Positions 1 to 27,908 of a stretch of DNA of 38,753 nt are shown here, one piece after another. Every line of letters begins with the position of its first letter. The stretch's first letter is position 1. Under the pieces are notes generated by a model that was given only the letters and a program-made list of their open reading frames with translations, did not search any database and was not told the DNA's origin. The stretch is from assembly GCF_004010195.1 (NCBI RefSeq), contig NW_025214063.1, positions 1 through 38,753 on the forward strand, read 5' to 3'. The DNA is from Chiloscyllium plagiosum (taxonomy: Eukaryota). A program made the translations under genes and the position numbers.

Positions 1-31
1 AATTGGTTTTGTGAACGTTTGCATTAGATAT
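1..31 (-). CDS. HPDL: HPDL coding exon 5 (partial, runs off the left edge)
   Basis: Minus strand tttgttttattacag|A TAT CTA ATG CAA ACG TTC ACA AAA CCA ATT. The first A completes the AG|A codon from exon 4, giving RYLMQTFTKPI, which matches the HPPD-family (Y/F)LLQ(V/I)FTK motif. Confidence 0.9.
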   Translation of the reverse strand, partial: MSNANVHKTN

Positions 32-63
32 CTGTAATAAAACAAATATTTTAGTCGTGAAGA

Positions 64-4480: not shown

Positions 4481-4733
4481 AAAACTGCATGGAGTAGGGA
4501 GCGTTCATTATAATCAGCTCAATGAAACATAATTACAACTATAGGTCAGAAGAAAGCAAGGAAGCTCAAACAATGAGCAATGATAAAATTATTGTAGAGA
4601 AAAAAAAGTTTATCCACAGCCACATCTGTGGTAAATCAGTGATTTCAACAAGCATGCTGTCTGAAAACTCTAATTTTAAGAAGTTCCTCTTCTTTTAGTA
4701 AAGAGTTCAGGAGTAGATGTTTATTCAACTTTC

Positions 4734-4936
4734 GATGTGGAGATGCCAGTGTTGGACTGGGGTGGATAAGATCAAAAGTCAGACGACACCAGGTTACAGT
4801 CCAACAAGTTTATTTGAAATCACAAGCTTTTGGAGTGTTGTCCCTTTGTCAGGTGAAGGGGCAATGCTCCAAAAGCTTGTGATTACAAATAAATCTGTCG
4901 GACCATAACCTGGTGACGTCTGACTTGTGATCTTAT
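4734..4936. mobile_element. Miniature palindromic (fold-back) PLE derivative
   Basis: Tail gatgtggagatgccagtgttggactggggtgg, then ~80 bp inverted arms (ataagatcaaaagtcagacg..cacaagcttttggag / ctccaaaagcttgtg..cgtctgacttgtgatcttat). Homologous to the ends of the GIY-YIG element at 23991-26134. Flanks ttattcaacttt (4721-4732) / ttattcaaattt (4933-4944). Confidence 0.82.
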
Positions 4937-5177
4937 TCAAATTTTTAATATTCTAGGCAGTCAGTGCAAACCCAAATTATCATATCAACTCAGTTGAAAG
5001 TCACAAATATAATTTGGAATACTAAAGGTAACATTATCATTAGGTGCTTCAGCACCACTCAAAATTGATTTTAGGTAGACAATAGTATTACTATTATTAA
5101 ACATTGTCTTTTGACACTGCAATTCAATTTCATTTCCTTTACAGATCAAAACTGTTGAACTAACCCTGCTGCAGTAC

Positions 5178-5329
5178 CTCATTGTAATATGCAGAAGGGG
5201 GACAGAAAAACTGAACTCCAGCATCTGTAAGGAACTTGCAAGTTGAAACTATGTCAGTCGTGTACAAGCCCACATGCTGTATCCCAGCTCCATGGTGCTG
5301 ATCTAAAAATGTGTCAATTTGATTTTTAC
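5178..5329 (-). CDS. HPDL: HPDL coding exon 3
   Basis: ttgtgttttag|GT AAA...AAT GAG|gtactg; 152 nt, phase 1 to 0. Encodes (G)KNQIDTFLDQHHGAGIQHVGLYTTDIVSTCKFLTDAGVQFFCPPSAYYNE, with the G.G.QH iron-ligand motif and PP.AYY. Confidence 0.95.
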
Positions 5330-5519
5330 CTAAAACACAAACAAATTATTTGTGAAAGATACCTAACAACTTATTTTCATATTCCTTACATCAATCTATA
5401 AATCACTGAGCCATACTAATTGTTATCCTCATTTCATTGTTTAGAAATTTATTTCAAATGGAAAGATCAATCAATATACAAGCATTACAGAATGCAGTTG
5501 ATTCCAGATGCATAGTTCT

Positions 5520-6356
5520 CGTGCTTATGGGTATGTTCGCCAAGCCAGGAAGTTGATTTGCGGACTTTTCATCCCCTGTCTAGGTGACATCTACAGTACT
5601 TTAGAGCATCCTGTGAAGCGCTGCTATACTGTCTCTTATGGAATTTATTTGGTTCCGTTTCTGCTTCTTCCGATTGTTCATTGTAGTGGCCGGTATATTG
5701 GGTCTATGTGCTTGTTGATGGAGTCTGTGGATGAGTGCCATGCTTCTCAAAATGCTCTGGCTGTCCTCTGTTTGGCTTGTCCTAGTTGAATTTGTGGTAC
5801 CTGTCATCTGTGTGTATGGCTATTAGGGACAGCTGGTCGTGGCGTTTAGTGGCTAGTTGGTGTTAATGGATGTGGATTGTTAAGTGTCCGACTGTTTTCC
5901 ATATATCGTGTTTCGTGCAGTCTTTGCATGGAATCTTGTAAATTACATTAGTCCACAGTCAGCTGTCCCTAGTAGCCATACACAAAGTTGACACACAGGG
6001 ACCACAAATTCGCCTGGGATAACACAACGATCATAGCACAAACCATACAGAAGACAGCCAGAGAATTCCTAGAAGCATGGCACTCATCCACTGACTATCA
6101 ACAAGCAGTTAGACTTAGATGCAATACATCGAACTACTACAACAAACAACTGGAACCGGCAACCAGAAGCAGCAGTAACAGAATGAAATAAATTCCAGAA
6201 GACAGTACAGCAGCACTTCACAGAAGGCAACAAAGCACTGAAGATGTCACCTAGACACGGGATGAAACAGTCTGTAAATCAATTTCCTAACTCTGCAAAC
6301 ATACCCACAAGGACGACAATTAACACCCGAGATACAAATCTTTACACAAACCTTGA
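5520..6356. mobile_element. Inverted (fold-back) Penelope-like element: minus arm ~5520-5952, plus arm ~5953-6356
   Basis: Minus arm reads TNVIYKIPCKDCTKH..HQLATKRHDQLSLIAIH; plus arm reads HKFAWDNTTIIAQ..TAREFLEAWHS (GIY-YIG). Decayed hammerhead cores at 5563-5596(-) and 6238-6272(+). Flanked by agatgcatagttct (5506-5519) / agatgcacaattct (6357-6370). Confidence 0.85.
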
Positions 6357-6906
6357 AGATGCACAATTCTTTGTGCAATAATTAGTGACAGAAATCCATA
6401 TTGTTATATCTTTCATATAAGCACTGGAAAAAGCAAGCATACAAATGGCTGGTAGAACAGGGTCTCGAAATATTTGATAGCACAAAGGGGGAAGTTATGG
6501 TCTGGACACTGAATAGAAAAATGGTACTGGCATACATTACATTAGGTGAGAACCAGCATGGAAGCATTTGGATTGCAATAATTGGAGGCAAAAAATCCTC
6601 TCTTTTGGAGAGGTGGGATGGTGGAAGGTCAGAGACAATGTTGCAGCACTTTCTCTGAAAGATTATACACACCTATGAGAATTGATCCATTACTATTGAT
6701 AGCTCACATAGGTAAAGAAAAACAAAAGGTCTCAAAACTTTGATCAATGAAAAGTTTAAAATTAACATTATAAAAGATAGTGAAGAACAAATATGTCCCT
6801 ACTTTGAAAGCAATGATAGAGCTTAAATATGTATACATACAATAAACACAAGTATGTTGAGCCTGAGAAAATTACTCAGGTATCCACATTATTAACAGCA
6901 CTGTAC

Positions 6907-7073
6907 CTTGATTGGCTAAGGACTCAGCTATCACAAATTTGCAGTCCAATTTCTGCTGTTCATTTGTAGGCATGGACATGCCAACTTCACTGCATTTCCA
7001 ATACTCCATAGCAGTTAAGCGCAGACCAACATTATTTCCTTCAATGACATAACCGTGATTTAGATCTTCACTT
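6907..7073 (-). CDS. HPDL: HPDL coding exon 2
   Basis: gagtttacag|A AGT GAA...CAA G|gtacag; 167 nt, phase 2 to 1. Encodes SEDLNHGYVIEGNNVGLRLTAMEYWKCSEVGMSMPTNEQQKLDCKFVIAESLANQ; GLRLTA and AESL match HPDL. Confidence 0.93.
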
Positions 7074-8576: not shown

Positions 8577-8591
8577 CACCGCGGGGAACAC

Positions 8592-9380
8592 CTGTGGGAG
8601 GGGCTTAGGGACTTGGCCCTAGGGATTAGCAAGTGGAGGTAGAGCCTGGAAGTGGTGGCACCAGGGCTTTTGCGGACTGACTTCTTAGGGGAGGGGAGTG
8701 TTGTGTGCCACGGAATAGGGAAATAGATCCTCGGTCCCCTTGGGGTAGTTTTGTCAAGGGGTGAGGAAGGGGCGGGGCTTGGAGGAAAGGGCGAGGATCG
8801 CTCACGCCATGAGGGGCGGGATTTAGATGGGTGGGCGGGGCCTTGTGGCAGAGGGGCGGGGTGTGTGCAGCGCTGCAGGGCGGGGCTTTGATTGCTGGTG
8901 TAAATCCCGACGCTGCGAGGGGGCGGGGCGCTTCCCTTTGTGATGGACGGCACCTGTAGGAGAGTAGCGAGGCATCGAGCCTTTTCTCTTCGGTAGGAGG
9001 CGGGGCCTGGGCTGAGGCGCGGAGTTTGGAGGAAAGTGGGCGGTGTTATCCGCTCTGTGATGTGGAGGTGCTGGTGTTGGACTGGGGTGGACAAAGTTAA
9101 AAATCACACAACACCAGGTCATTGTCCAACAGGTTTATTTGGAAGCACTAGCTTTCTGAGCGCTGGTCCTTCATCATGCACTCCGAAAGCTAGTGCTTCC
9201 AAATAAACCTGTTGGACTATAACCTGGTATTGTGTGATTTTTAACTTTAAACAAATCTAACGCTCTCTGAAGATGGGGATTTAGGAAAGGGGCGTGGTGT
9301 GGATTTAGGGGCGGGCTCCAGGTTTGGTTTGGTTTGGTGGGGGCGAGGCAGTCGCCTTCAGAGGCCCTGGTGAGTGGTAG
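8592..9380 (-). promoter_or_regulatory. GC-box-rich CpG-island promoter / 5' region of HPDL
   Basis: About eight GG(G)GCGGG Sp/KLF boxes (near 8770, 8813, 8833, 8853, 8879, 8920, 8999, 9308); CpG-rich sequence continuous with exon 1. Confidence 0.75.
9059..9248. mobile_element. Miniature palindromic (fold-back) PLE derivative inside the HPDL promoter
   Basis: 34-nt tail 9059-9092, then arms aaagttaaaaatcacacaacaccagg..ggaagcactagctttc / gaaagctagtgcttcc..tgtgtgatttttaacttt, nearly identical to the ends of the 23991-26134 element. Centre holds a hammerhead remnant (minus strand TGATGAaggaccagcgctcaGAAAgcta). Confidence 0.88.
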
Positions 9381-9769
9381 TTCTGCTTTGCAGACTTACA
9401 AGGTGCTATTTTTGAACTATATTGCCATCTCAAATTTGTTTCAAAGCAACTTAATGATAAATAATGAATGCCAAGTCAAATATGAAAACGATAACAATGT
9501 TATTCAAATATTTGTTGAAAGAACTGGGTTTGAAGATTTGGCTTAAAAGAGGAAAGGGAGTGAGAAATTTAAGCTGGCATTTTCCAGATTTCAGTGTAGG
9601 AAGATAACACAACCATTCTATCGATATCTAGTCTGTAGCTGCCATTCCGATAGTACTTTTTATTTTAATCTTTAACATTTCTTATTTATCTCTGTATTGT
9701 ATTTTACCAATATTCTTTATCATCATAAACTAAGGAATTATGTATGAGAAAATGAGCAAGAAAGGTTAA

Positions 9770-11140
9770 ACTTGGACAATAAAAACTTCTACAAGTACAT
9801 AAAAAGCAAATATGAAGCTAAATAACATGTTTTTCCAAGAAACTTTTTCTTTGGGTTACAAAATGGCAATAATAACACCTATATTCAAGAAAGAAGGGTG
9901 TCTAAACAGGAAATTAAAAGCTGGTTAGTCTAACATCTCTCATTGAGAAGTTGCTGGAAACCAGTATTAAGATGTTTAGAAAATGATAATGCACAGGCAG
10001 AGAAATGTGGTTTTGAGTGAATGGAAATTGTGTTTGGAGAATTTGTTAGCTTTTTTTTAATATGTCATAAGCAAGGTGGATAAAGGGCAACCATAGATGT
10101 AGTGTATTTAGGTTTCCAAAAGGGATTCATTAAGGCACCATGTTATGAGGTTCTAGCACAAGACATTGTGGTGTTTTATTAGAATGGATAGAGAATTGGT
10201 TAGTTAGCTGTAAACAGTTAGTTAAATGTTCAGTTTTGAGGTTGATAAAGTGTAAAAACAAAATGCAGCGGGGATGAGTACTGGGGCCTTGATTATTTAC
10301 AATTTAGATTAGTTACTTGCATGAAGGAATTGACTATTGTAGTTATATTTACATGTTAGGTAGAAAAGAAAGTTGTAAAGAGAAGATAAGATGGGATTTA
10401 GGTTGAGTGGGTAGGCAAAAATATAGCAGATTAAATATAATGTTTGAAAATGAGGTTATCCACTTTAGCTGGAAGAATGGAAAAGCAGAATATTATTTAA
10501 ATGAAAGTAGACTGTAATGATACAGTGAAGATGGGTCTGGATATTCTTGTATCATTAAAGGTTGACATGTAGGTACAGCAAGTAGTTTGGAAAGCAAAGA
10601 GAATGTTGGCCTTTATTGCAAAGAACATTGAGTGTAAAAATAGAGAAGTCTTGCTACACATGTAGTACAGAGCAAGAGCATTGTGGGTGTACATACATCC
10701 CAAGGACTGCATTAATACAGGAAAGCAACTCACGTCCTCCACCTTGAGGGCAACTATGGATAGGCAACCAGTGGCACTCATATCCCATAAATTAATAAGA
10801 AAAATAAAGTTTATAGTCTCCTTACTTAAGAAAGGACACACCGGCTTTGGAAACGGTTGAGAGAGGGTCCACTAGGTTGATTGCTGAGAGAAAAAGTTTA
10901 TCTTTTAGAGATACTTTGAGAAGGATTCAGTAGAATGAGAGGTGATCTTATTGAAACATGTAAAAATTGTAAGGGAGCTAAGATATTGAGGGAATGTTTA
11001 CTCTAGAACTATGGGACTTGGTTTAAATGAATTCTTCTATTTAAGATAGAGATGAGGATTGTTAGGCTATGGAATTCTCTTCTAAAGAGAGCAGTGAAGT
11101 CTGTGCCATTGAATATCTTGAAGGCTGAGCTAGATTGATC
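9770..11140 (+). mobile_element. Decayed CR1 LINE ORF2/3' fragment with a short nested repeat (~10690-10800)
   Basis: Remnants of CR1 RT motifs: ataacacctatattcaagaaag (TP.FKK), gttagtctaacatct (VSLTS), gatgtagtgtatttaggtttccaaaag (DVVYL.FQK), agaatgagaggtgatcttattgaaac (RMRGDLIE). Confidence 0.75.
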
Positions 11141-11189
11141 TATAAAAACTTAAAGTTTGAACACCAGCAGGATGATGACCAACTGAGAT

Positions 11190-11324
11190 TACCATGAAGG
11201 ATACTCCTCAATCTTTCCCCCTCACTTGAGGCATGGTGACCCTCAGGTTAAGCCACCAACAGTCGTGCCACTCGAGTGAGAGGGCAACACTATGGTCCAA
11301 TAGGAATATAGTGACTTTTCCTTT
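11190..11324 (+). mobile_element. Short retroelement 3' tail fragment (family uncertain)
   Basis: ccctcacttgaggcatggtgaccctcaggttaagccacca..ctatggtc..gtgactttt resembles a recalled common shark LINE/SINE tail; separates two CR1 pieces. Confidence 0.35.
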
Positions 11325-11329
11325 CATGA

Positions 11330-11960
11330 TGGAAAATGTGAACTTGTTCACTTTGGCAAGTAGCATATAAGATGAGCATTTTACTAAAATGGTGTGTAGT
11401 TGCAGAACTGTGAAACAGAGAGATCTGGCTGTCTTGGTTCATGAATCACAAAGTTAATATGTAGGTACACCAAGTGAGTTGGAAGGCGATTAGATTATTG
11501 TCATTTATTGTAAAGGAAATGATGTATAAAAGGATGTGTTGCTACAGTTGTATAGGACATTAGTGAGACCACATCTGGAGAACTCTATGCATTTTTAGTC
11601 TCCTTAGCTTTTACAAGAGTTGCAGGAAAAAGTAAGAAAGACCTCTCTTATTCAGCAAGGAAAGATATAGATGAATTAGAAACAGTTCAGAGAAGGTTCA
11701 TTTAACCGATACCTGGGATACGGAGGGTTGGGCCTATATGCATTGCATTTAGAAGAATAAAAGGTGATCCTATGAGACATAAGAGACACTGAGATGTCTT
11801 GGCTGCATGTATGCTTAAAGGATATTTCCATTTGTGGAAAAGACATGAACTAGGGGATGTAGTTTAAAATTAAGGAGTCTATCATTTACGATGGAGATGA
11901 GAATTTCTTTTGAGGTCTTTGAAACACCCATCCTCAGAAAATAGTGGAGGCAGAGTCATT
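11330..11960 (+). mobile_element. Decayed CR1 LINE 3' fragment
   Basis: ttgtataggacattagtgagaccacatctggag (LYRTLVRPHLE), ttagaaacagttcagagaaggttc (LETVQRRF), followed by CR1 3' UTR-like sequence. Confidence 0.78.
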
Positions 11961-11965
11961 TGATT

Positions 11966-12205
11966 GTGTAGTCAGTGCTGTAATGTAAGAAACAATGTAG
12001 CCAATTTGCATTCAGCAAGTGTCCACAAATGATGTGATTTTGAAAAAATTGTTTGAAGAGTAAAAATTGGTTAATACATTTTGCTCTTCTTTGAAATAGC
12101 AACATGGGATACTTCACATTCACCCAGGCAAACATATAGCATCTCAATTTTATATCTCATCAAAGGGGTTTCTCAGATGATGCAACACTCTCTTCATACT
12201 ATGAT
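11966..12205 (-). mobile_element. DeuSINE-like (SacSINE-type) SINE remnant
   Basis: gtgtagtcagtgctgtaatgtaagaaac..gccaatttgc..tgctcttctttgaaatagc..atgggat..tctcatc resembles the reverse strand of the Deu-domain SINE body. Confidence 0.55.
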
Positions 12206-12739
12206 TTAGAGATGCCAGTGTTGAACTTCATTCTATATTAGAATGCCAGCCTATATACATTGTGTAATCAACTCTTTTCAATAGTTGATTCAAGCTGCTT
12301 TCCGAAAACTGTTAGAGTCCCCCGACCAATAATATTTGCAACGCATTAATCATGAATTTTAAGACTGAAATGTGTTAATAACCAATTTTATTTGTTAGTT
12401 TCACCTGAAACTGAAAAATAATATTTTGTACAAATAGTATTTGCCAACTAAACAATCGATTTACATTTATAATTATGATGTGGAAAATGTTGTGAGCCAG
12501 ATAAGTAAACAATAGCCAGAAAAGATAATAGAATTGAAAGTAGCAGATAGTTAGAGGTGATAGCTTAGATGAGGGAAAACTTTTCAAAAATTGTAACATA
12601 GTTGCAACATCCAATTAGTCAAACATCTAGGACTATCTCCAACCAGTGGTTGTCAACCTAATGTGAGAATTTAAACTGATTTTATGTGCTTTGCATCAAT
12701 GTTAACTTAGCCTCCAGTATCAGGTTCTACAGCATGTCA

Positions 12740-12915
12740 GCCTTGGCTCAATTCATAGAACGTTTGCTTCTGAATTACAAGGAATGGGTTCAAGTTCCAA
12801 CTCCAAAGCTTAAGCACAGGAAGCAAGGCTGGCATTTCAAAACAGGGCAGAGGGAGTGCTGTTGTCTTTTATGTGAGATGTTAAATTGAAGCTCGGTCTG
12901 GATGGATGTTAAAGG
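12740..12915 (+). mobile_element. DeuSINE-like SINE 5' part with decayed tRNA-derived head
   Basis: tggctca (A-box-like), gggttcaagttcc (B-box-like), then gagggagtgctg..gagatgttaaa..ggatgttaaag. Confidence 0.55.
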
Positions 12916-12969
12916 CAATCATTTGCTTTGGATCACCAAGTTATGTCACAGGAGGAGGTAATTTACTCG

Positions 12970-13970
12970 TCAAACTGATGCTAGCTCTCTGTAGAAGAAT
13001 CTAGTTAGTCCTATTTCTCCGCTCTATGCTTGTAGCCCTGCAAAATAACTTTTGAGTGCCTAATTTTCTTTTGAAATCATTGACTATCTCTGCTTCCACT
13101 GTCCACATACACAACTAGTTTCACTTGCTGTATAAAAGTGTCATTCCCTGCAGCTCTTATCAAAAACCTTAAAACTGCGTCCAATCATTCTTGTAGCATC
13201 ACTGGGAACAGCTTTTCTTTCTGTACTTTATCTAAAACGTTACAATCTAGTACACCTCCTTAAAACTCATCATTCACAATGCTTTGAGGAGAATAACCAA
13301 TTCTTCCAGTCTAAAACTCCTCTTGTAAATCTCTTTCACCCTCTGAGATATTGAAATCTTTCTGAAAGTGTGATAATCAGAACTCGATACAATTGTCTCT
13401 GTAGGCAAACCAGAGCTTTCTAATGGTTCTTCAAATCTTTGCACTCAATTGTGAAGTTCTGGTTCACAAAGCAAATGGGATTCTATCTGTGAATTTGTCC
13501 TGCCACATTCAAAGATCTGTGTACATGGATCCATAGATTCCTGTATCCAGACTCATGGTGTTGAATATTTCTATGAAATCTCATCGATATTTTCTTCTCT
13601 AAGAAGTACAGTCGTAATTTTGCAAATGTGTCCACATAACTGAGCTTTTTCATCCCTGGAGCATTTATTAATATTTTATGAACTCCTACTGTCTTAACAT
13701 ACTTCGTGAAGCATCATGCCCAGAACTGTACGTGATGCTTCGTTCAAGCAAACCTAGCATTCCAAAGAAATTTATACCGCCCCATTGCTTTTGTACTCCG
13801 TGTTTCTACTAATAAAACCCACGATGCTGTATACTTTCTTAACTGTTCTCTCACCATGTCTTGCCACCTTCAATGATTTACGTACATATGCACTCAGGTT
13901 ACTCTGCTCCGATAGCTGTTTAAAAATTGAACCTTTATTTAATCGTGTCTTCGCCTTGTCACTACCAAAA
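12970..13970 (-). mobile_element. Decayed CR1 LINE fragments
   Basis: Reverse-strand CR1-like motifs such as tgtcctgccacattcaaagatct, gcccagaactgtac, tcttgccaccttcaatgattt. Probably two pieces. Confidence 0.5.
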
Positions 13971-14085
13971 TAAATAGCCTAAATTCCAAGTCTCGTGAAT
14001 TCAACGTGTGTCTTCCTCTAATTAACGTTTAAATGGTACAAACAGTATAAATGCTACTCCGGCGAGGCGAAGCCTCATTGCTATG

Positions 14086-14153
14086 AAATGACGATTCTCC
14101 TACTCGGATGCTGCCTAACCTGTGCTTTTCCAGCACCGCACTCTCGACTCTGA
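14086..14153 (+). mobile_element. Short PLE-type 3' terminal fragment
   Basis: cgattctcctactcggatgctgcctaacctgtgcttttccagcaccgcactctcgactctga resembles the sequence that follows the hammerhead in a recalled abundant shark PLE family. Confidence 0.5.
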
Positions 14154-14169
14154 TCAGCTGAGTTGCATT

Positions 14170-14460
14170 CTGTCCGGAGTAGTAGGTGACGTAATCGTCG
14201 GCTAATCAAAGAGCAGCGCGGTGTTGGTTTACGTGACGTTCTAATAGCCCCGCCCCTAGCGTTCTGTTGACGCGATGACGTCACAGCCCGGTTACCCGGG
14301 GTGACGTCGGTTCCAAAACATCAAGGACGGCGGCTATGATTGGTCCGACGCCTGAGCCCGAGCGGCGGCCAATGAAGGCAGCAAGCTGGCGCGAGTTGCG
14401 GAGTGACGTTTTAAATATCCCAGCAAACTTTGTCCGATGTTGTCTTTGCCGTCGCCATTA
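14170..14460 (+). promoter_or_regulatory. ZRANB1 CpG-island promoter with clustered CRE/ATF sites
   Basis: TGACG at 14187, 14234, 14268, 14276 (full TGACGTCA), 14302 and 14404; GC box 14247-14256; ATTGG at 14339 and CCAAT at 14369; TATA-like tttaaata at 14410; YY1-like CGCCAT at 14453. Confidence 0.8.
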
Positions 14461-14946
14461 GAGTCGAACGGAGAAGCCTGAGAAAAGAAAGGGGGAAAAA
14501 AAAAATGTCATAAAGAGCAAGGGGGAAAAAGAAGTGAGATCGACTGGAACGGCGGTAGAGGAGAAGGTCTGTTTGTTGTATGCAGTCCCTCTAACACTAA
14601 TCGTAAACGAGATGGGGCAACGACGGCGGCGGTGGAATGGAGGTGCAGCCCCAGCGCAGCTGAATGTCAGGCCGGTGCCTGAGATCTGGATTTAGGTAAT
14701 TGCTGGTCGTCAGTCACGAAAAAAAGATACCGCAGCTCTAACCGTACTGTTGAATTTATTCTGCGCGAAGTGGCAAGGAAGGACACAGCCCGTCTCGGAT
14801 CAATACAAGTCCGCTCCTTTGGAAGTGTGAAGTTAGCGTTAAGACAAACCTGCCTCCTTTCTTTCAAGGCAATGTGATGGGGAAGTGCAGCTCTCTTGTC
14901 CTGTTGTGCAACCTTTGCTTTAACCCTAGCAAAACTTATTTATTAG
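14440..14946 (+). other. ZRANB1: Putative non-coding first exon of ZRANB1 (boundaries uncertain)
   Basis: Lies directly downstream of the promoter motifs. Candidate donors TAG|gtaatt (14695), TAG|gtaaag (14947) and CCG|gtatgg (15000). The coding exon has its own acceptor at 20166, so an upstream exon is expected. Confidence 0.45.
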
Positions 14947-17236
14947 GTAAAGGTGCACGTAGAGTTTTCAAAAGTTTAGCTGAAGTAGCTGCGAAGCCGG
15001 TATGGTGAAGTTTTGTTTTGGGGGGCGAAATGAGTCGGGTTTCTATTTCGTACGGTGCATGAAGAAAATTTAGTATTCTCTTAAATCTGGTTTAGAAGCT
15101 GAAGTTTGCTATTATTGTAGCAGCCTGGATGTTTTTTCAAACTAATCGTGGCTTTCTAAAGCTAAAACTGATGTTCCGGTACAAGAAATTATACGCACTG
15201 TACCTGACTTGGCATAACTTTCCCTTTTTCTGGGGTTCTGTTTCAATTGCATTTTATCCAGACCCAGTGCCACGTTTGTGACGCTTAATTTACCTCGAAT
15301 GAACAGCACTAATGTTTGCAAACAGAACTCTGTACAAACAAGAAATCAAACTGCATTTCGTCTTTATTGTTGAAATCCTTATTTTTATGGTGCAATCTCC
15401 ATGGCCAAAAAGTAAAACATTTCTAACTGTGTGATTTTGTAGCAGTTTTTTTTGTAACGTGGCCACCATTCCCTGTTTGAGTGCTATCTTTGTTGAGGCC
15501 TGTTTGTTGATTCTTGTTTACAGTTGCCGTCTATCATGAAATTTTTATTCAGAATTGGTGGGGGTTTAAGTAAATGTATAAATTTTTTTTTAACATGTTT
15601 AAATCATAATTTATCAATTTATTTTTGCTTTCCCAATTCTTCTCTAAATTCAGAGTTGCAGTTCAATTATTCCAGAATGACTATTTTATTTAAAAATTAC
15701 ATAATTCTGTTTTAAATTCTACATTCTCACATTGTGCTTTTCAATAATTTGAGTTTGGCAATAAACAAATATTTTAGTCACACAGTTCAGGTATAGACTG
15801 TTTGGGCACTTAGAACCTTCCTTTTGATGTTTACTACAATATTTTTAAAATCTTGACTAAACCAAGACATCCAGCTTGTGCCGCCACCAGATGTAATTTT
15901 ATTCTTGCTAAAGACTGCGACTGGTCCCTTCCTTCCACTCATTAATATATTCAGCTTCTTGCTAATACATGTGTTTGGTTCTGCTTTCTGAGAGCTTTGC
16001 TTTGATATCAAACTGTGAAGCTTGTACTTTCCTGGTAAAGTTAATTGCAAACTACTTAAAATATTGTTTAGTAATGAAGTGCCATGTTTTTAGTCTTCAA
16101 GGATTTCTGAAGTGAAAACTGTACAGAATAGTGTGGTACTGTTTTCTAGGTTTATAGTATTATTGATGATGTCCAGCTTAGTCAAAACATTTTGAACTTG
16201 TATGTTGTATCATAAAGTTCCATACACAAGGGCTGATTTGAATATTCCATAATGGATTCTGTGTACTTGGTGTTCTGTGCATTGTGATTAAATTGGATTA
16301 AAAGTTTCAGTGTGAGATTGAATTCTTTTTTGTTTAGGATAGTACTACTACTAATTTGGTTTAACTAGAGTAATGGCTGTTTATAGTTATCTTCCTTATG
16401 CCTAGACCATGAAAAGAAAAATGAACAACCTGAATCCTGCTGATCAGTATGTGACTGCTGGATATTGCATGTTTATGAATATGGGTGGAAATGAGATTGA
16501 ATTTTGCTATCTACCTTCATGGTTCCAAAATGATCAAATTTTTGGTTGTTATTTTTCCTTTGTGTTTGTGTTTGTTTTCCCCTGCGTATGTTTTCTTCGA
16601 CATGAGGTATTTTAAATCTTCCTCATTTTGAGCAATCTTACAAAATACAAGTTAAAATGTAATGTTGTCTAATGTACTATAAGTTAAATTTTGATTTAAG
16701 CTAGCTTGTAAAGAGACTTGCCAGTTCCAATAGTGCTTTGATAATCATGCAAGGTGTAATATTTAAGAAACATCACCAATATGTAACACTTTACAAATAG
16801 GGTTTCGAAACTACTTGTGGTATTTTGGTGAAGTAATTCTTTTCTGTAACAATAGTTGCTATTGCAGCATTAATTGGTTAAGTGTCTGAAAGATTTACTG
16901 TGTTAAAGCTCATTTTTGAGTTATTTTTGTCTGAGTTGTGGCCTACTTAAAGTAATGTCTTACCTGGTTGGTTAGTACTACCTCTAAAACAGTTGATGGA
17001 AAGCTGCTTGACAAAGCTAAAGCAGAAGTAAAGTTTCTTTGGAGGTAAATTTCTAACTTTGTAAATCTGTTTTAAATCAAGTGCATTGTAACAGCTTTCT
17101 TTCCCAAATGGAAGGAATTTTGTAAACATACAACTTGTTGCATTGTAGTTTGATAGAAATAGCTTTAGATTTCTCGGTTTTATGGGATTCAAAAGAAAAC
17201 ATAGTCTATAATTGTGTGATTTTTGAAATACATAAG

Positions 17237-17456
17237 TATGGGTTTCCTCCGGGTGCTCCGGTTTCCTCCCACAGTCCAAAGATGTACAGGGTCAGGTGAA
17301 TTGGCCATACTGAATTGCCCGTAGTGTTAGGTAAGGGGTAAATGTAGGGGTATGGGTGGGTTTCGCTTCGGCGGGTCGGTGTGGACTTGTTGGGCCGAAG
17401 GGCCTGTTTCCACACTGTAATCTAATCTAATCTAATCTAATCTAATCTAATCTAAT
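17237..17456 (+). mobile_element. 5'-truncated HE1/V-SINE-type SINE with (TAATC)n tail
   Basis: V-domain tgggtttcctccgggtgctccggtttcctcccacagtccaaagatgt, CR1-derived 3' end gttgggccgaagggcctgtttccacactgt, and about 8 TAATC units (17418-17456). Confidence 0.9.
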
Positions 17457-18374
17457 ATCTACAAATTACATTTTATTTCTTCTCTCAAATGATAAAACAG
17501 TGATCAGTTGAAAACACAGCTAGCAAGTATATCTGTCATGCACTACTTGCTACTTTCTTTAATTTATATAATCTATTTGAAAATGTATTTATTTTGATCA
17601 AAATGTACTTGTGAAGATATCAATGTTTTTTTGGGAAGTTGGAAGTTAAGTTGTTTTGCGTGGTCACTACGTGGGAGCTCAGTCAAAGTTTTCTCGACAG
17701 CACGCTAGGTTACATCAGATACCATGTTTACTGTAGTTTCCATATTGTGAGGAGCAACAGTGCTATTGTATGTACAATTGTAGAATGAGGGGAAACCTGA
17801 TTGTGAGAATATAGTATGAATGCAAACAAAGCAATAACATAAATGTTAATGAACATCTCTCAATACACTGAGATCTTAGTGTAAAGTGATATGCTGAAGC
17901 ATAGAACTCTCTGTATTGTGGGTTTATATAAATAGAAGTTGTCTCGTGTGATCTTAAAACATTTCTTAAAATAGGAAAGTTTCTAACACATTTGAGATTG
18001 TGAATTCACTATAGCTCTGTTCCTATATATAAAAATAGGATAGTTTTGGGTGCATACTTTTTTCCCAGAACTAGAGATGTCAGTTTTCCAATTTTGAAAG
18101 AGGGAGTCCAGTGATAAAACCTCGGCTACTCCACTCTTCAGAACAAAGTGATTTGCCAGATATTCTGTTTTGCCGCTTTACTCCTAAAATGTGCCGGTCA
18201 ACTAATTTCCGCTATTGTACGTTTTAATTGTCTGTCAGAATTTTTTAAAAATGGAGAATACCATAGACATTTATATGACAAGTGTATCTTTTTAAAATTC
18301 AGGTTCATGACCCCATTTCACCCAACTTATGAAGTGACCTCTGTTTACAGAGCACTTTTTAAGTATTGGTTGTG

Positions 18375-18568
18375 ATCTGCAATGGGCTTCTGGAAAGGAT
18401 AGTAAAAGCAGAGTTTAATTAATATTCAAAAGAGGATTATATGCATAATTCAAAGTACGGAGAGATCCTTTAGCCAAGGGGAAAAGAGGAGATGGAGTAA
18501 TTGGATAGCTCTTTGATAGAACTGGCACAGGTGCACAGCTGAATAACTTCCTTCCGTGCAGTATGATT
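18375..18568 (+). mobile_element. Decayed CR1 3' end
   Basis: gtaaaagcagag..aatattcaaaagagga..gagtaattggatagctctt..actggcacagg..cttccttccgtgcagtatgatt resembles a CR1 3' UTR. Confidence 0.5.
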
Positions 18569-18737
18569 ATTGATTATTTACTTGTTTTGGCCCTGGTGAA
18601 TGAGCAGCTCATAAAATGAGTGCAATAATTGAAACTGCTGTTCCGATCAACCATAGACTGATAGGAGGTCTCGAAATGTTGGACTTTCTTGGTTCTTCAT
18701 TTTAAATAGAAATTTTCCAGTTCTCTTTTTTTTTTCC

Positions 18738-19050
18738 AATTGTTCATTCTCAGGATGTGGGCATCAGTGGAACGGCTGGCATCTTCCCATCCCTAGTTGT
18801 CTTGAGAAGGTAGTAATGAACCTTCTTCTTAAACCGAGTGATGTTCTAGGCTATTTCAACAGGCAGTTAAGAATTGGTATGGAACTGGAATCCGTTATAG
18901 GCCAGACCAGGTAAGGTGGGCAGGGTTTCCTTCCCTCAGAGGGCATCAGTAAAGCTGTTGTGTTTTTAATGGCAATCCAAATAGCTTAATAGTCATTCTA
19001 CTTTTGTATTGATAACCAGATTTTTAAAAAGTGATTTTCAAATTCTCAAA
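18738..19050 (-). mobile_element. Old SINE remnant with LINE-derived tail
   Basis: ggatgtgggcatc..cccatccctagttgtcttgagaaggt and taggccagaccaggtaagg..tttccttccct match the reverse strand of a recalled common shark SINE; related tails near 23870 and 29380-29420. Confidence 0.5.
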
Positions 19051-20202
19051 CCAGCATTGGTTAAAATAATGTACGTAATTTATTTAATACAGAAGATTTA
19101 TGTAAATTGTGCAAAAGAATGCCATGTACATAAATTTGATATTTGTATCCAAGTAGCTTTTCTCTATGTATATGAGGTTTGTTTTCATAATTATTGCAGA
19201 AGTAAGCATAGATGTCCTGACTGATTCCGGACAAGTGTATTTTGTAATGGGTTCTCGAGTTGCTTTTCAAAGCTTGTATTGAAGAATGAAACATGATGGG
19301 TATAACCAAAGGCAACTTTTACCAGCGTGCATACAGTCTTAACTGTAGTCGTCGATATTTAGTATAGCATTGTGGAGAGGTTGCCTTTTTTGGTGAGGAT
19401 TTCACAAATGAGCAAATTATCATTTCTTTCTGGTAAACAAGTTACCAGTTTGAGATATCAAACATGTGCTGTGGCTACGCTGACTTGATACTAATTAATT
19501 TCCATCTTGATATGGAAATGAAATATATGGTGAAGTTGCACACTTATAGCTGTAGTACTGTCCTAACCCATTGGAAGAATAAGACAAAAGATTCCCCGAC
19601 TTAAGTCAGTTTCATTCTTTTCTCTCTTTAATTCCACACTATTGTAGGCAGATTTAATCCAGGTATCTTTGTGGGTTTTGATTCTGTCAACTTTCATTAA
19701 TCTTTAGATCATTTATGATAGGAAAGATTAAAAGCTACCTTAGTTAAATGGTGTATCCAGAAATTGTAAGTTTAATCCAAACTTCTATTCATGATGAATT
19801 CTTAAGGCATAAGGTTTCTGAAGACTTTTTGAAGATTATCTTCACCATTAGTACAGACTTACGTTAATTTTGTTCAGTGATAAATTTATATTTTAAATCA
19901 GTAATGTGTTCTCATAAATTGAGTTAGTTTGGTTGGAGCGGAGGTTGATAGCAGGAAGACTAAACTGTAGAGTTGTCTGGGCCTCAACAATATGTAGTGT
20001 TACCTGATAAACTCAAATACATTTTTACTGAAAGGGTGTTATCAACCAACATTTCGCACAAAGTAATGTAGAGACTTTTTACTGTGCTCTCATTCAGTAA
20101 ATTTGGGTGCCAAAATGGGTTTTAAGAGAATTGCCGTGTTTCATACTTGTTAATTTTATTTTGCAGATTCCAATCCAGCATTGAAAACTGGTGTGAGCAA
20201 CG

Positions 20203-21019
20203 ATGACTGAATATGGAATAAAGTGGGCTTGTGAATATTGCACATATGAAAACTGGCCCTCTGCAATCAAATGTACCATGTGTCGTGCGCCAAGACCTAC
20301 TGGCACTATAATTACTGAAGATCCAACCAGGGGCAGCTCAAGTGATTTGAATCAAGTGTGGGATACCCCAAGTATAGAGGGTGGCAGCAGCCCTTTGATT
20401 TGTCCAGACTCTAGTGCTAGACCAAGGGTTAAATCATCCTACAATTCAGAAAGTACAAGCAAGTGGTCATGCCACATGTGTACATATCTGAATTGGCCAA
20501 GAGCAATAAGATGCACTCAGTGTTTGTCCCAACGTCGGACTAGAAGTCCTACAGAATCCCCCCAGTCATCTGGTTGTATTTCAAGACCAGTTCAGGCTTC
20601 TCAGGATCCATGTGAAGAATATAATGACAGGAACAGACTGAATACAAAAGCATTGCATTGGACGTGCACAGCTTGCACATACGAGAACTGTCCCAAGTCT
20701 CGGAAGTGTGTAGTCTGTGACTACCCTAGACCTAACAATTTGGAAGCAATTGAATTTACAGAGCCAGAAGAAGCTTCATCATTGATAAATGAGCAGGATA
20801 GGGCTCGATGGAGGAGCAGTGTTGGTGGTGGCAATAGCCAAAGGAGATCTCCTCCTGTACCTAAACGTGAATCTGCGATGAAAATGGACTTTCAAAGAAT
20901 TGAGTTGGCACCTGGGGCAGTAGGCAGTAAAGAAGAGTTGGAAGTGGACTTCAAAAGACTCAAACAAATAAAGAACAGAATGAAAAGATCAGATTGGCTG
21001 TTTCTCAACGCTTGTGTTG
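20203..21019 (+). CDS. ZRANB1: ZRANB1 (TRABID deubiquitinase) first coding exon, three NZF/RanBP2-type zinc fingers
   Basis: MTEYGIKWACEYCTYENWPSAIKCTMC, WSCHMCTYLNWPRAIRCTQC, WTCTACTYENCPKSRKCVVC, ending KQIKNRM..DWLFLNACVG. Acceptor ttttattttgcag|20167, in-frame upstream TGA at 20182, donor GTT G|gtaggt (phase 1). Confidence 0.97.
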
Positions 21020-21409
21020 GTAGGTCATAATTAAAATTTTGTTTAATATTTTTGTAGTTTTCCAATAAATAAGCTATTCACAAATGAGTATCATGCACAA
21101 TTTTAAGAACATTGGGGAGAAATGTGAAGATATTACATTTATTCAATATCTGAAATTATCAGTGATTTGGTTTGTAACAGTCCTAATGGATATTTTGATC
21201 TGAATGTATCTTTTCTGCTATCCAGTTTGTGCGCAGTATTCAATAAATTATTACTACATTGGACTCTAGAATAGTAGAATTGTATCATCTTCAGCACCTG
21301 TTTTCACAAGCTTGTTTGGGAGAGAAAGAAAATGTGAGTAACTGAGTGCAAGGAATTCAGACATGAAGTGAATGAGATCAAAAGAAACGACTGGCAGTCA
21401 ACATAAAAG

Positions 21410-22200
21410 TCATGTATTGACACATAGGTAGCATGTGGATGGGTAATAAAACAAAATGCAGTCAATTTATGACCACAAAGGTAATTTGGGCATGGAGGAT
21501 AGGCTGGTCGGGAGTTTGAAATGATTGATATAGAGTCAGTATCAGAAAGATTTGCTGCACTGAACCTTAATTCACGAAGACTGGGTATTCAAGGATATAA
21601 TGAGAAGTAAGGATGCTAATAGTGGAGGAAATGGCCATTTTTTTTCATTTCTCCTTGGATACGGCAGTGGTGAAAAGGATACATGTGAATTATCAATGTT
21701 ACAGCCTTGTTCAAAATTGGATGGATGAACCCATTACCAACAGGCCAGTCACTTCTACCTCGATAATGGGAAACCTTTTAGGAATGACAATCATTTGGAC
21801 AAATATGGATTAGCTAAAGTGAGCCTGTTTGGGTGGTTTTGTAACTAGGGTAAATTATGTTTATCTAAATTGACTTGTTTGGCATAGATATTGATGTGAT
21901 GCCCATGAACTTTCAAAAGGTGTTTGGCCAGCCTGTTATGTGCCACTTCAGCAAAGTTGAAACCCATTGAATAAATAAAAGGACAGTGGCAGAATTGCGG
22001 TGGCTCACTGACAAGAAACAGCCATGTTCAGTGATTTACATTCCAAAAACCCAAAAGGCAATAATGCAGTTATTCAGGTTCAATGCTTCACCTGATCTAA
22101 TAATGACTTAGGCTTGATATATAGGATGCAGTTTCAAAATTTGCAGGTGACATAATGTGGAAGTATTGTGAACTGAGCAAGATCGTGCTGGAAGTGGCCC
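21410..22200 (+). mobile_element. Heavily decayed CR1 LINE
   Basis: caggccagtcacttctacctcgataatgggaaacctttta (like RPVSLTS..GKLL), atgaactttcaaaaggtgttt (like DFQKAF), tcaaaatttgcaggtgaca (like KFADD). Confidence 0.6.
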
Positions 22201-22419
22201 AATTTGTACAGTCACATCAGTGCATTTTTAATTATTTGAAATAGCAACCTGCTGTACTAAAATCTATTTCTAAAATAATTCAGTACCAAGTTTTGGCAAT
22301 CATGCAGGTTGAACAGATGCCGTACAAAATCCACCTGCTTCATTGCTGCCCTTCAGAGAAGAAATTTTGCTGCATCCACCTTGATCTGCTGCACACTCTC
22401 TAAGATTGACGTTTAATAC

Positions 22420-23420
22420 CCTGTCCAAATTTTGGTAAATGATCCTTTCTTGTGCTCCAGTTAGATGCGGTTGCTCACACCATTCTCTCCAGCCCCTGCC
22501 TGTCAAGTTAGATGGAATGCCCTCATTCTTTCTTTTATCTGCAGCCGAATATTCCTTGCAATCTTCCTTTCACTCTCCTGCCATTATCTGTGTTGTCCCC
22601 CACATTCTATCCTTTGTCCTCCCCACTATTTCTCATTATATGCTGCCATTGATGCATATTTGGAGGATGTCACACATCAGTTTTCTCTCACAAGTCTACC
22701 TTTCACAGCTCCTCAACTGTTGTTTGAAATCATTCCGCAGAGACCGGTCTCCCTTTATTTACACAAGGACAGTCCTTGACTATGGTGCCTCTGATGCAGT
22801 ACTAATGTGTCAGTGTCACAGACGCTCACTCTTTTTATGTATCAGCTGGACTCCCTGATTGGACCAACTTCACGGCCCCAGTCAGTGAACCCATATTCTG
22901 AGGTCTAGCTGGCTGACGTCGTTACAAAACATCATAGCTAACTTATCCAACAGCTTTTCCAGTCGCCAGCACTGACAGAGAAGTAATTTGTACCAAAGTA
23001 TTGGTAGGAAACTAAAGCCATTGCTCTTATATTACCTTCTCCAAACTCCATTTACTGGCAACTGACTCCATCCCTGTCACATTTGAGAGAAATTAAGTCT
23101 TTTCAATCTTTAAAGATAATATTTAACCCTGAGATAAACTTCTGACTGCATCATTAAGATGGCATAATGTCATCTTTGTATCAGCTCATATGCAGAAATC
23201 CTCATGACTTTTGCTTATGAACATACATTGGCTCTAAGTCAAGCAACATTTTGACATTTGAAATGCCTGCTTGACATTCTGACTCCCAATCTCTGATCTC
23301 CTTCATGTGAGGTGTTTGCGCACACTTAACAGTAGCCTCTTGAGTGTACCTGGTTTTAATTGTTCTGCCATTTGTGGCTATAGTTACAACTGGCTGACTT
23401 TAAGCTCTGGAAATTGTTTC
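22420..23420 (+). mobile_element. Heavily decayed L2-type LINE
   Basis: Pyrimidine-rich; ggaaactaaagccattgct, ctgactccatccct and atatttaaccctgagataaacttc resemble L2 RT C-terminal sequence. Confidence 0.45.
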
Positions 23421-23990
23421 TATCCCTACGCATTCACCCCAAATCCCAAAAAACAATAACATCTTTCCTCCTTTTAATTCAGAAACTGACCAACTGTAGC
23501 GCTAGTCCACCATTTAGCAAGGTTCTCTGACTGTTCCTGATGTAACCCAGTCGAGCCATCTACAAGGTCCAGGGTTAACTGTTGTTTAAAATCCTGCGTT
23601 AGACTCTGTCACATACCTAAATTCAGCTGTATTGCAATGAAGAATGTTTGAACTTCTTTCAAGGGCTCTGGGTGTTACTGTTGAGAGCATTTCTTTTCAT
23701 CCTGATCGCTCTTGTGGTGATGGTGAACTATCTTTAAACTACCTCAGTGTGTTTTATTCAAGTGCTGATGAGAAGGGAGTTCCAGGATTGTGATAGTGGG
23801 CAAATGATGATATAATTTGAAGTCAGGGCAATGTGTGACTTAGGAGTAGAATGAAGGTTTTTGTGTTTCTGGATGTGGGCATCATGAGTAAAGAGACATT
23901 CACTGTCCACCCTTGGGGCGTTTCAAAGTAGGAAGTCAACTGCCTTCAGCCCTAATCATTTTCCAAGACTAACCTGTCTTTATAATCCAT

Positions 23991-26134
23991 GATTTGGAGA
24001 TGCCAGTGTTGGACTCGGGTGTACAAAGTTAAAATTCACACACCAGGTTATAGTCCAACAGGTTTAATTGGAAGCACACTAGCTTTCAGAGCAACGCTCC
24101 AGGTGATTGTGGAAGGTTCGATCGTAACACAGAATTTATAGCAAAAATTTGCAGTGTGATGTAACTGAAATTATACATTGAAACATTGATTGATTGTCTG
24201 TTAGAATACGGTGATAGTTTCACTTTTTCATGTGTAAATCACAAAACCTTTTGTTTTAAAAGTTGCATTCTCGGGTTAGCTGTTAACAATGGTGATAGCT
24301 AGACAATATGTTGAAGGTGTTAGCCGCTTGTGTTCTCTGTCTATGACCTGATGTTTAGATTGATTCTAATCTAAAAAGTGAGATAATGGAGTTTTACATA
24401 AATTCATGCAGTTTTTGAGCTTCGAGTTCTACATGAATGTATGCAGTTTTTGAGCAAAGTGCAATGTAACTCTGCAAGTACAAATTCACCCCACAAAGTA
24501 TATGTGCATGTGGGTCTTTGTCTGTCTGTGTGTGTCTGTCTGGGGTGCGGGATGTGAGTGTGTGTGTGAGGGAATATCGTGTATGTGTATGTGTATGTGT
24601 ATGTGTGTGTGTGTGTAGTGCAATGGTGATCACCTGTAATGTGACATGAACCCAAGGTCCCGGTTGAGATCCTCCCTATGGGTACCAAACTGAGCTATCA
24701 GCCTCTACTGCCTGTCCCGAAGTCCACCTTGGAGGATGGTCACCCGAAGGTCCGACGCTGAATGTCCTGGACCACTGAAGTGTTCCCCAATTGGGAGGGA
24801 ACCCTCCTGTCCGTTGATTGTTGTGCGGTGCCCATTCATCCGTTGCCGTAGCCTTTGCTCGTTTTCCCCAATGTACCATGCCTCCGGGCATCGTTGCCTG
24901 CAACGTATAAGATAGACAACGTTGGCTGAGTCACATGAGTACCTGCCATGTACAAGGTGGGAGGTGTTCCCACGCTTAATAGTGGTATCTATGTCCACAA
25001 TCTGACATGTCTTGCAGCGTCCACCGTGACCGGAGTTTGTCCTGAGAGCCGGGCAGTTTGCTACGAACAATGATCTGTTTGAGGTTTGGCAGTTGTTTAA
25101 AGGCAAGTAGTGGAGGTGTGGGGAAGGTCTTGGTGAGGTGCTTATCCTCATTGATAATGTGTTGCAGGTCATGAAGAACATGGCGTAATTTTTCAGCCCC
25201 TGGGACAGGAGGGTTCCCTCCCAGTTGGGGAACGCTTCAGTGGTCCAGGACATTCAGCCTCGGACCTTCGGGTGACCATCCTCCAAGGTAGACTTTGGGA
25301 CAAGCAGCAGAGGAACTTGGCCGAGCAGAGGCTGATAGCTCAGTTTGGTACCCATAGGGAGGGCCTCAACTGGGACCTTGGGTTCATGTCACAATACAGG
25401 TGATCACCATTGCACGCACGCGCGCGGACACACGGACACACACACCTACACACGGACACAGGTATACACAGACTCACGCACGGACACCCACATACACACA
25501 CACTTATAGACACACACTTCCCCCACACTCACATGCACCCCCTCACAGACTTAAGACACTCTGCACTCACCACACACACACGCGCACGCACACACATTCT
25601 TTCTCACACTCACAACCCCCACCCCAGACAGACAGACAAAGACCCACATGCACACATATATTTTGTGGGGTGAATTTGTACTTGCAGAGTTACATTGCAC
25701 TTTGCTCAAAAACTGCATGCATTCATGCAGAACTCGAAGCTCAAAAACTGCATAAATTTATGTAGAACTCCATTATCTCACTTTTTAGATTAGAATCAAT
25801 CTAAACATCAGGTCATAGATAGAGAACACAGGGGGCCAACACCTTCAACATATTGTCTAGCTATCACCATTGTTAACAGCTAACCCGAGAATGCAACTTT
25901 TAAAACAAAAGGTTTTGTGATTTACACGTGAAAGAAGTGAAACTATTACTGTATTCTAACAATACATTTTTCAATGTATAATTTCAGTTACATCATAGTG
26001 CAAATTTTTGCTATAAATTCTGTGTTACGATCGAGCCCTCCACTATCACCAGATGAAGAAGCGTCGCTCCGAAAGCTAGTGTGCTTCCAATTAAACCTGT
26101 TGGACTATAACCTGGTGTTGTGTGATTTTTAACT
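23991..26134. mobile_element. 2.1 kb fold-back Penelope-like element (Cys-rich linker plus GIY-YIG; inverted arms ~24027-24812 and ~25203-26134)
   Basis: Minus strand CKTCQIV..GRYSCDSANVVYLIRCRQRCPEAWYIGENEQRLRQRMNGHR..PIGEHFSGPGH. Arms are reverse complements, include CA-rich tracts and end in mutated hammerhead cores. Exact 11-bp direct repeat ctgtctttata at 23974-23984 and 26135-26145. Confidence 0.92.
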
Positions 26135-27908
26135 CTGTCTTTATAGAACATCATTAGCATTGTAAGGCACAAAGGGTATAGTCAGTTACTGAACCATATA
26201 GCTGATGAGATCTAATGACCAATAGCTTGATTAAAGTGAGTGGTAGAGGAGAATCTTAAAGGGTCAAAATGATGTAATGAAGGAGTCAGCACTTTCAGGA
26301 GAGGGTGACGAGATTAAGATCGTGTCTACTCTCCTTTTTTTTTCTGCAGTGCAACCTCTTATAAATCCTGTCATCCTTGCATGTTCTGAGCCTTCCAGTG
26401 CTTCAATGTCTCTTAATCGAGGTCAGTTATCCAAATCTGTATTGAGATATTTTCAAAAATGGCTCAGTTATTCTGAGTTCAAGTGACTTAATTTGCTTGA
26501 AATGTGATTGGCAATCTTGTTACATAATTGTGTGTACATTTTCTCCAATTTACTTTTTGCAAGAAGATCAGTTTGCTTAGTTTCTATTATATTGTATTAA
26601 ATGATAAATTTTTCACATTTACAGGAAGATTTCAAGTTTACTTAGTAAATTTCCTACACTCTTAATCTGAGAGGATTAAATTCAGACTAATATATGCAGA
26701 AACTGTTGATGAATTCATGCATGAATTCAGCCTTTCAATACTTGCAGGGTTTTTTGTGATGAATCTTAAGTTACGAAGTTGTCTCATCTAAGAATTTTTT
26801 TTTGACTGATACAAAAATTAATTGCTGCCTCTGTTAAATTCTAGTTTATATTCACATCTTAAACTAGGTGGCTGAGAGCTGACGTGTTTATATTTGTGTT
26901 GTTGTGTAAGTTGTACCATTTGGGATGATTTAATTTTTAAAAAATGCTTTGGGGTAGACCATTCTAATTCAACTTCATATTATAAGGAAAATTGTTGCAA
27001 TTGGTCCTGCTTGCCTTCAGAAAGATAGTTGGTGCATTATTGTGTGGAGTTCATTTTGATCAAATATGCTTTCTGTACCATGAAATGTTGGAAGTATCAT
27101 CCGAAAATTGGAGAAGTCAGAAATTACAAATCTCTGACCAGTATTAAACCTCATTGCTCTGTAAGTGAGTGATTTTTCAGAGCTGGGATTTATATCAAAC
27201 AACGCTATTTGCACAGTATATGGATTATCATGAAAATGCTTCATATGAGTAGTTTTTGATCTGAGTTTGAAGAATTGAGTATTGTGCCTGGGTTGTCTTT
27301 TTGAAAAGTTCAGTTTTTTCAGCAAAGCATTTTGTGAAAATCTTGATTGCTCTATCTTCCTTCAAGGAAAATACCTGCTGACTTTTTCTGTTCTGTTAAA
27401 ACATTATTTTTCTGATTTGGAATTTGTATTGATTTTCAGCTGGGAAAGCAATCCCAGTTTGTCTTGTTTTTGAATCATTTCTTGAGAGGCCAGGTTGAAA
27501 CCAGGTTGTTTTTATAGAAGTGTGACTGAAAGAACTTCCCAATATGGTATTTCCTGAGCAAACTGTCTGCCAGAGCACCAGAGACAGCCTGAATGTCTCT
27601 CATCACGCGTTTACTGCACCAGATTGACAGACCTCAAACTTTCTATGCCTGAACTTTGTTTATTTTGAACAATAACCACTATTGGCCAGAAAGTTTTTTT
27701 TTCCCCCCGAGTAACTCATTACAGAAAGGAATCAGTTTTTGTTTTCTTCCACATTTCCACCCTCCATATAGCTGAATTGTTTGTGTTTTGGGTTATTTAG
27801 CGGGATAAATATTTATATTTCCATATCGCACATACATTTACCAATTCTGCATCTTTGTTTTGTTTTCATCATAACATAATTTTGTGTATATTGAAGAAAC
27901 CTAGTTGC

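Follow-up and report, generated by a model that had tools for sequence, protein, structure and literature searches.

Four places in a stretch of 38,753 nucleotides (nt) from the shark Chiloscyllium plagiosum (contig NW_025214063.1 of assembly GCF_004010195.1, positions 1 to 38,753, forward strand; this whole stretch is the window, and all positions refer to it) carry two truncated ends of Penelope-like elements (PLEs) set head to head. We hold with high confidence that each of these inverted units is the product of a single insertion event by a PLE bearing an endonuclease, and the evidence practically establishes that one staggered cut was made and that both arms were deposited at that one site. 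How the two arms came to be made is a more delicate matter, where we lean somewhat towards priming from both ends of the cut over a fold-back of the growing strand. The units are named A (about 4721-4944), B (about 5506-6370), C (about 9051-9270) and D (23974-26145). By self-comparison and arm alignment all four are real palindromes, head-to-head pairs of 5'-truncated PLE 3' ends, with the 3' ends of the arms facing outward. Counted over ungapped columns, the arms of a unit are 85-95% alike: 72 of 84 columns are identical in A (4763-4846 against 4856-4939), 271 of 319 in B (5513-5835 against 5960-6322, with 48 gap columns besides), 66 of 71 in C (9093-9163 against 9178-9248) and 742 of 782 in D (24023-24812 against 25203-26138). 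A single arm carries a tail in 4/4 units, extending 35-41 nt beyond the other (37 nt in A, 41 in B, 35 in C and 37 in D), much as in the optional 30-40 nt tail of PLEs. Two families are involved, one 3' end being common to A, C and D and the other to B and a copy at 1-884. On these points (inverted arms at four places, a tail on one arm only, two distinct families) a preliminary description of the window made from its letters stands as it was. It had also seen a size series sharing one architecture; the architecture is indeed common, but the lengths of 0.2, 0.2, 0.84 and 2.15 kb make three size classes among four units.

Read from left to right, unit A begins with one copy of its target-site duplication (TSD; 4721-4732, + strand, 11/12), followed by a tail-bearing arm on the - strand (4733-4855), which belongs to an older subfamily and has its inner end at a hammerhead-like core, by the tail-less arm on the + strand (4853-4932), the likeness of which continues to 4939 within the repeat, and by the right TSD copy (4933-4944, +). 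Unit B has its left TSD copy at 5506-5519 (+, 12/14), the final 7 nt of which align as arm end too, then a tail-less arm (5520-5953, -), a shorter, tail-bearing arm (5954-6356, +; tail about 6316-6356, the 41 nt being counted from the inner repeat edge) and the right TSD copy (6357-6370, +). In unit C the tail-bearing arm (9058-9176, -), of D's family, faces a tail-less arm (9178-9248, +) that stops 35 nt before the tail end; 12 unexplained nt and a repeat of 9051-9060 follow (9249-9270, +). Unit D consists of a left copy of an 11-bp TSD (23974-23984, +), 5 nt that separate it from the tail (23985-23989), the longer, tail-bearing arm (23990-25205, -), the tail-less arm (25203-26134, +) and the right TSD copy (26135-26145, +). 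The unpaired centre is part of the tail arm in A, C and D, where this arm exceeds its partner by about 9, 14 and 390 nt; in B it is part of the tail-less arm, which an extra 118 nt (5836-5953) make the longer of the two.

Other copies of the family allow the ends to be placed. A search of sequence runs with the flank 19900-23950 gave 22 runs from three coded organisms, called organisms A, B and C, and four of these runs were compared with positions 8600-26800 at 88% likeness; units A and B lie outside this stretch, and the rows cited come from 24 of 518,595 pieces, 15 of 3,064 joints and 24 of 10,479 loose ends. Among other copies, loose ends accumulate at two points: 9058, where the tail ends, in each of the four runs (1849, 1505 and 1554 contigs; 4749 reads), and 26134, the end without a tail (654, 496 and 636 contigs), and both pile-ups then run into mixed AT-rich flanks with an agreement of 0.35-0.36. 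In A and D the inner repeat edge falls in an identical column, 37 nt from where the tail ends. The outer ends are therefore two family-wide fixed positions, 35-41 nt apart. It is the inner junction that varies. Units A and C turn at a hammerhead-like hairpin, and joints at 24070-26071 (three shared letters), 24319-25682 (two) and 24948-25248 (14 letters between) are read here as other palindromic copies that turn elsewhere, with the reservation that such joints often arise from repeats, and that they cannot reveal which arm has the tail because a unit may map in either orientation. The arms of A and D probably overlap by 3 nt at their junction (25203-25205 in D), judging from D's left arm, the loose-end consensus and the residue that precedes the break in homologs; the overlap is at most 2 nt in C and at most 1 nt in B. 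Inner duplications were looked for at the junctions and none was found at any of them.

The direct repeats round the units were assessed by taking the best ungapped repeat across both boundaries and comparing it, window-wide and locally, with 4000 random host flanks per unit. The 11/11 repeat of D was matched by 4 and 0 of these flanks respectively, the 11/12 repeat of A by 26 and 0, and the 12/14 repeat of B by 67 and 50. For C the best repeat (9/10, 9051-9060 and 9261-9270) is within chance, 261 and 339 of the 4000 flanks being as good; since it also stands 12 nt off the arm end and has three letters in common with the tail, a TSD of C was rejected as unproven. Bracketing repeats, which had been claimed for every unit, hence go beyond chance in D, A and B and not in C. 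In A, B and D the repeats run into the end of the tail-less arm by 7, 7 and 4 nt, so that the inner repeat edges are ambiguous. With a short TSD round the whole inverted unit, from the chance test in A and B and from an empty site in D, the target appears as AT-rich DNA opened by a staggered cut of 11-14 bp.

That empty site comes from organism C, where one contig (run X9, record 20) joins 23973 to 26135 with no letters between, the pieces 22898-23973 and 26135-26800 mapping to adjoining record positions 1832 and 1831. The 2161 nt that are missing comprise one repeat copy and 2150 nt, that is, both arms of D and the 5 extra nt at 23985-23989, which consequently belong to the insertion; one copy of the 11-bp repeat is retained. 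The depth of the record, 46.1, is that of single-copy sequence (38-45 in the other listed records of the run). An orthologous site with a single repeat copy is what the preliminary description had proposed to look for. In organism B, D is present, and two contigs (X5 records 5 and 6) enter it at both junctions (to 24030 and from 26108). The 11-bp repeat is thus the true boundary of D, whether by insertion or by precise loss, and D makes a clean presence/absence marker, found in organisms A and B and absent from organism C. Unit C is present in both organism B (a contig to 9083) and organism C (from 9224), so that neither offers an empty site for it.

Arm divergence points the same way. Over eight listed pieces of each run, flanking DNA differs from that of organism B at 574 of 14693 sites (3.9%) and from that of organism C at 654 of 14613 (4.5%); the arms of D, microsatellite excluded, differ at 32 of 667 (4.8%, confidence interval 3.3-6.7). 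This is about what one would expect of arms that were identical at an insertion placed between these two splits, taking the splits as bracketing and assuming the branching order of organisms A, B and C. Both A (14%) and B (15%) are older than D by the divergence of their arms. In the family of A, C and D, 12 columns are informative: eight group the arms of A, three (two events) group those of D, and one conflicts. The single event is best supported for D, because its empty site has one repeat copy and its arm divergence fits the dated interval, and it is supported for A because the eight columns are common to both its arms against C and D. The earlier view that each palindrome is one integration product is upheld in this way, and the worry that the arms might come from different subfamilies is answered for A and D; in these columns the arms of C are not resolved from those of D. 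A (CA)-rich tract differs in length between the arms of D (24519-24616, about 100 nt, against about 25413-25660, about 245 nt), the remainder being 95% alike; the tract may have slipped or lost sequence after the insertion, or the two arms may have had different templates.

We tend to prefer two-ended priming as the route to these units. A reverse transcriptase (RT)-endonuclease, probably a dimer, would nick both strands of the target, and from each 3'-OH a copy of the element's 3' end would be reverse transcribed. One cDNA would begin at an outer start site and so include the tail, the other at an inner start site and so lack it. Both would halt early, often near the hammerhead motif, and either could be the longer; they would then be joined head to head via 0-3 nt of microhomology, and fill-in would yield the target-site duplication. 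Both outer ends are explained in this manner because in vitro work with PAc, a Poseidon element of the lizard Anolis, maps two RT start sites bounding the tail: its protein, a predicted dimer, starts at these two internal RNA sites, and cuts and extends both strands with no strand difference (Frangieh et al., 2024, PMC11167929). A 26-nt stub at 12202-12227 (- strand), purely tail sequence of the A/C/D family (24/26), is possibly a cDNA that halted before the inner start site.

The most serious competitor, which we regard as possible though on balance doubtful, is the model of the preliminary description, fold-back or self-priming, related to a proposal of Arkhipova et al. (2013, PMC3846280). 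A cDNA starting at the tail would snap back on an inverted match of 2-3 nt and be copied towards its start, the copy halting about 35 nt short and joining the far target end by microhomology. The longer tail arm of A, C and D, the probable 3-nt overlaps of A and D and the turning of A and C at a hairpin all suit this account, which also needs no additional templates to explain why the tail is one-sided and the arms are identical. It gives no reason, however, why the copy should stop at a fixed position, and it is at a site of this kind that reverse transcription was mapped to begin (PMC11167929). Moreover, what had been described was fold-back that halts at differing lengths; the outer ends are fixed, and the variation lies at the inner junction. 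Two-ended priming is favoured over fold-back chiefly because the longer arm of B is tail-less, so that copying it upon itself could not have supplied the tail unless part of the other arm was later deleted.

Several considerations weigh against the readings that we prefer. The case versus fold-back turns on one old element, B, with its 48 gap columns, where the centre could have been deleted later, and the tail arm is the longer in 3/4 units, as fold-back predicts. If the start sites were chosen independently, units with two tails or with none should occur too; as 4/4 are one-sided, a coupling of the two ends must be assumed. One RNA is not easily the template for the same 3' segment twice, so two RNAs or a tandem transcript have to be assumed too. 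The in vitro data concern a lizard Poseidon element and would carry over to A-D, which are of other families, by analogy. As for the single event, C is without a proven duplication, and its right arm has three differences from the right arm of D and four from its own partner (67 columns); the empty site comes from a single contig in a single run, and a precise loss between the repeats could look alike.

The target itself may have had a say. The host repeat copy on the side of the tail is similar to the tail-less end of the element, at 6/7 positions in A, 5/7 in B and 3/7 in D, with simulated P values of 0.009, 0.049 and 0.33, combined 0.007 (post hoc, C omitted); over 5 nt, no element falls below 0.05 (0.052, 0.19 and 0.063). 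This amounts to a hint of target-to-element microhomology at the tail-less end, which fold-back predicts and which both leading models could use. A more speculative and rather unlikely version of two-ended priming would couple the ends through a division of labour, the nick served by the outer site being unpaired, while at the inner site 4-6 nt of target overhang would pair with the RNA. Were this true, target likeness would set which end is tail-less, arm lengths being independent of it; it would account for the long-known signature of inversion plus tail and would modify the in vitro finding that starts occur without homology.

Two successive insertions, the second copy homing into or against the first in opposite orientation, are highly improbable. 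To be sure, the PLE protein can nick its own pseudo-long terminal repeat (pLTR; PMC11167929), the duplication of C is unproven and the arms of C are no closer to each other than to D. Yet the empty site of D lacks both arms and keeps a single copy of the repeat, inner duplication is absent at every junction, the arms of one unit share subfamily marks and those of D fit one date, which makes this alternative already unlikely for D. Least credible of all is that host repair or replication later mirrored a plain one-armed insertion through an inverted duplication of broken DNA: breaks are known to give rise to fold-back inversions (PMC11724301), but here the mirror never takes in host flank, it stops at a common element column in A and D, and the duplication brackets both arms.

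That the elements carry an endonuclease is seen most directly in D. Its left arm encodes, at 24633-25203, a linker (a decayed CX4CxxC) and a GIY-YIG endonuclease interrupted by a frameshift, and its right arm, at 25206-25400, the C-terminus of the endonuclease. The left arm scores 0.96 in the Atlas to clusters in which 40% and 18% of members carry GIY-YIG; a direct Pfam scan of the frameshifted open reading frame (ORF) returned 0 families. A longer-protein search for homologs of D gave 19 matches among 118 candidates, mostly named from sharks, the best with 89-90% identity. Some have an RT upstream, P0005 and P0018 carrying RVT_1 upstream of the endonuclease. A C-terminal GIY-YIG after the RT, as in endonuclease-bearing (EN+) PLEs, thus emerges from the Atlas clusters and from the homologs, which supply the RT-endonuclease order, the RT itself lying outside the truncated copies A-D. 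CX4CxxC occurs in homologs P0002, P0003 and P0005, and D retains CxxC, the first C being lost. Units A, C and D are read as probably one Neptune-type family because these homologs carry the CX2-5CxxC linker before the endonuclease that marks Neptune and Nematis (Craig et al., 2021, PMC8557442), an assignment made from this motif, which does not separate Neptune from Nematis.

The unpaired centre of B (5836-5953) and the copy at 1-884 translate, by eye, to the start of a GIY-YIG-like domain of another type, and we take B to be of Penelope/Poseidon type. The copy at 1-884 (+ strand), 64-65% like B, is one-armed as far as the window reaches and has a tail; no CX2-5CxxC, a linker motif that the Penelope/Poseidon clade lacks before the endonuclease, was found in the few residues translated upstream of its domain, and B itself is cut at the domain start. 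A minimal-hammerhead-like core is intact only in that copy, at 773-802, and decayed in A-D (about 26050-26078 in the tail-less arm of D); an intact hammerhead 5' core is seen in the consensus of loose ends of the A/C/D family. An Rfam scan gave no hammerhead match among its three hits, which were miRNA-type, fell on the hairpins of A, of C and of a palindrome at 1966-2174, remained below gathering scores and were rejected as mere hairpin shape. That fifth palindrome (79/88 alike, with a 33-nt centre) has no flanking repeat above 6 nt and only a marginal 28-nt likeness to the end of A (E 0.04); it may be a PLE end, decayed and from a further family, or else a miniature inverted-repeat transposable element (MITE). 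For the units themselves, a MITE or DNA transposon with terminal inverted repeats was rejected: the termini are asymmetric, the inner junctions differ among A, C, D and other copies, and the arms are retroelement coding and untranslated sequence. Contigs from metagenomes, viruses and prokaryotes contained 0 matches to a 25-nt pattern of the family.

In the neighbourhood, D sits downstream of an exon encoding RanBP zinc fingers and AnkUBD, presumably ZRANB1-like, and C, located in GC-rich DNA, about 440 nt upstream of an ORF of glyoxalase fold (a weak match, below cut-off), which we assume to be HPDL-like. At about 14075-14155, depth and loose ends reveal a short piece of another very high-copy repeat end, to our eyes resembling a third hammerhead-type PLE end; a GC-rich, promoter-like stretch adjoins it. 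A young SINE-like repeat at about 17240-17463, with a (TAATC)8 tail, is taken as specific to organism A because the contigs of organisms B and C skip it; a related copy lies at 27909-28089 in opposite orientation. A further 190 nt (19313-19502) are missing from an organism B contig (X5 record 5) and spanned by one of organism C (X9 record 19). An RT fragment at 38063-38689 (+ strand; Pfam RVT_1, E 1e-13), unrelated to the inverted units, is probably, we presume, of LINE origin.

How do these units compare with known systems? In L1 twin priming, both target nicks prime and the cDNAs are joined by microhomology within one TSD. There, a non-overlapping upstream part is inverted, whereas here the same 3' end is present twice, requiring two templates. 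The closest published units are the EN+ Penelope elements of Adineta vaga, with inverted pLTRs, a one-sided 31-bp tail, TSDs of 8-10 bp and an empty allelic site with one TSD, for which self-priming on an antisense template is proposed (Arkhipova et al., 2013, PMC3846280). Head-to-head ends, the one-sided tail, TSDs round the unit and an empty site with one TSD are shared with the present units; these differ in consisting of just two truncated ends of 0.2-2.2 kb, in a shark, with TSDs of 11-14 bp. The architecture does not differ from the general PLE scheme as it is outlined, where a 5'-truncated copy lies inverted beside the 5' end and a tail of 30-40 bp is frequently confined to one end (Craig et al., 2021, PMC8557442; Goubert et al., 2022, PMC8969392). 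Inverted pLTRs, one-sided tail and 8-10 bp TSD being already published (PMC3846280; PMC8557442), the finding as first worded is not new. In Schistosoma, pairs of minimal hammerheads on opposite strands, 100-700 bp apart (Cervera and De la Pena, 2014, PMC4209133), likewise place two PLE ends with hammerheads near each other, at varying spacing; TSDs and tails are not part of that account in the portions consulted. With PAc the units share two RT start sites bounding the tail and AT-rich targets, the cutting and extension of both strands being known from PAc. In the main-text results of that study inverted units are left unexplained and starts are not homologous to the cut DNA (PMC11167929), unlike the tail-less end here, which weakly resembles the target in A and B. 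The parts of PMC9977147 at hand add nothing further on inverted units, and no published proposal of two-ended priming for them was found by title or abstract start, though PLE papers of 2005 and 2006 may hold one. Craig et al. (2021, PMC8557442) attribute the tail to resolution mediated by the endonuclease and list the origin of inverted structures as open. It is to this question of how PLEs make inverted units that the present ones bring material, from a lineage with very many copies and with relatives at about 4% divergence that retain empty sites.

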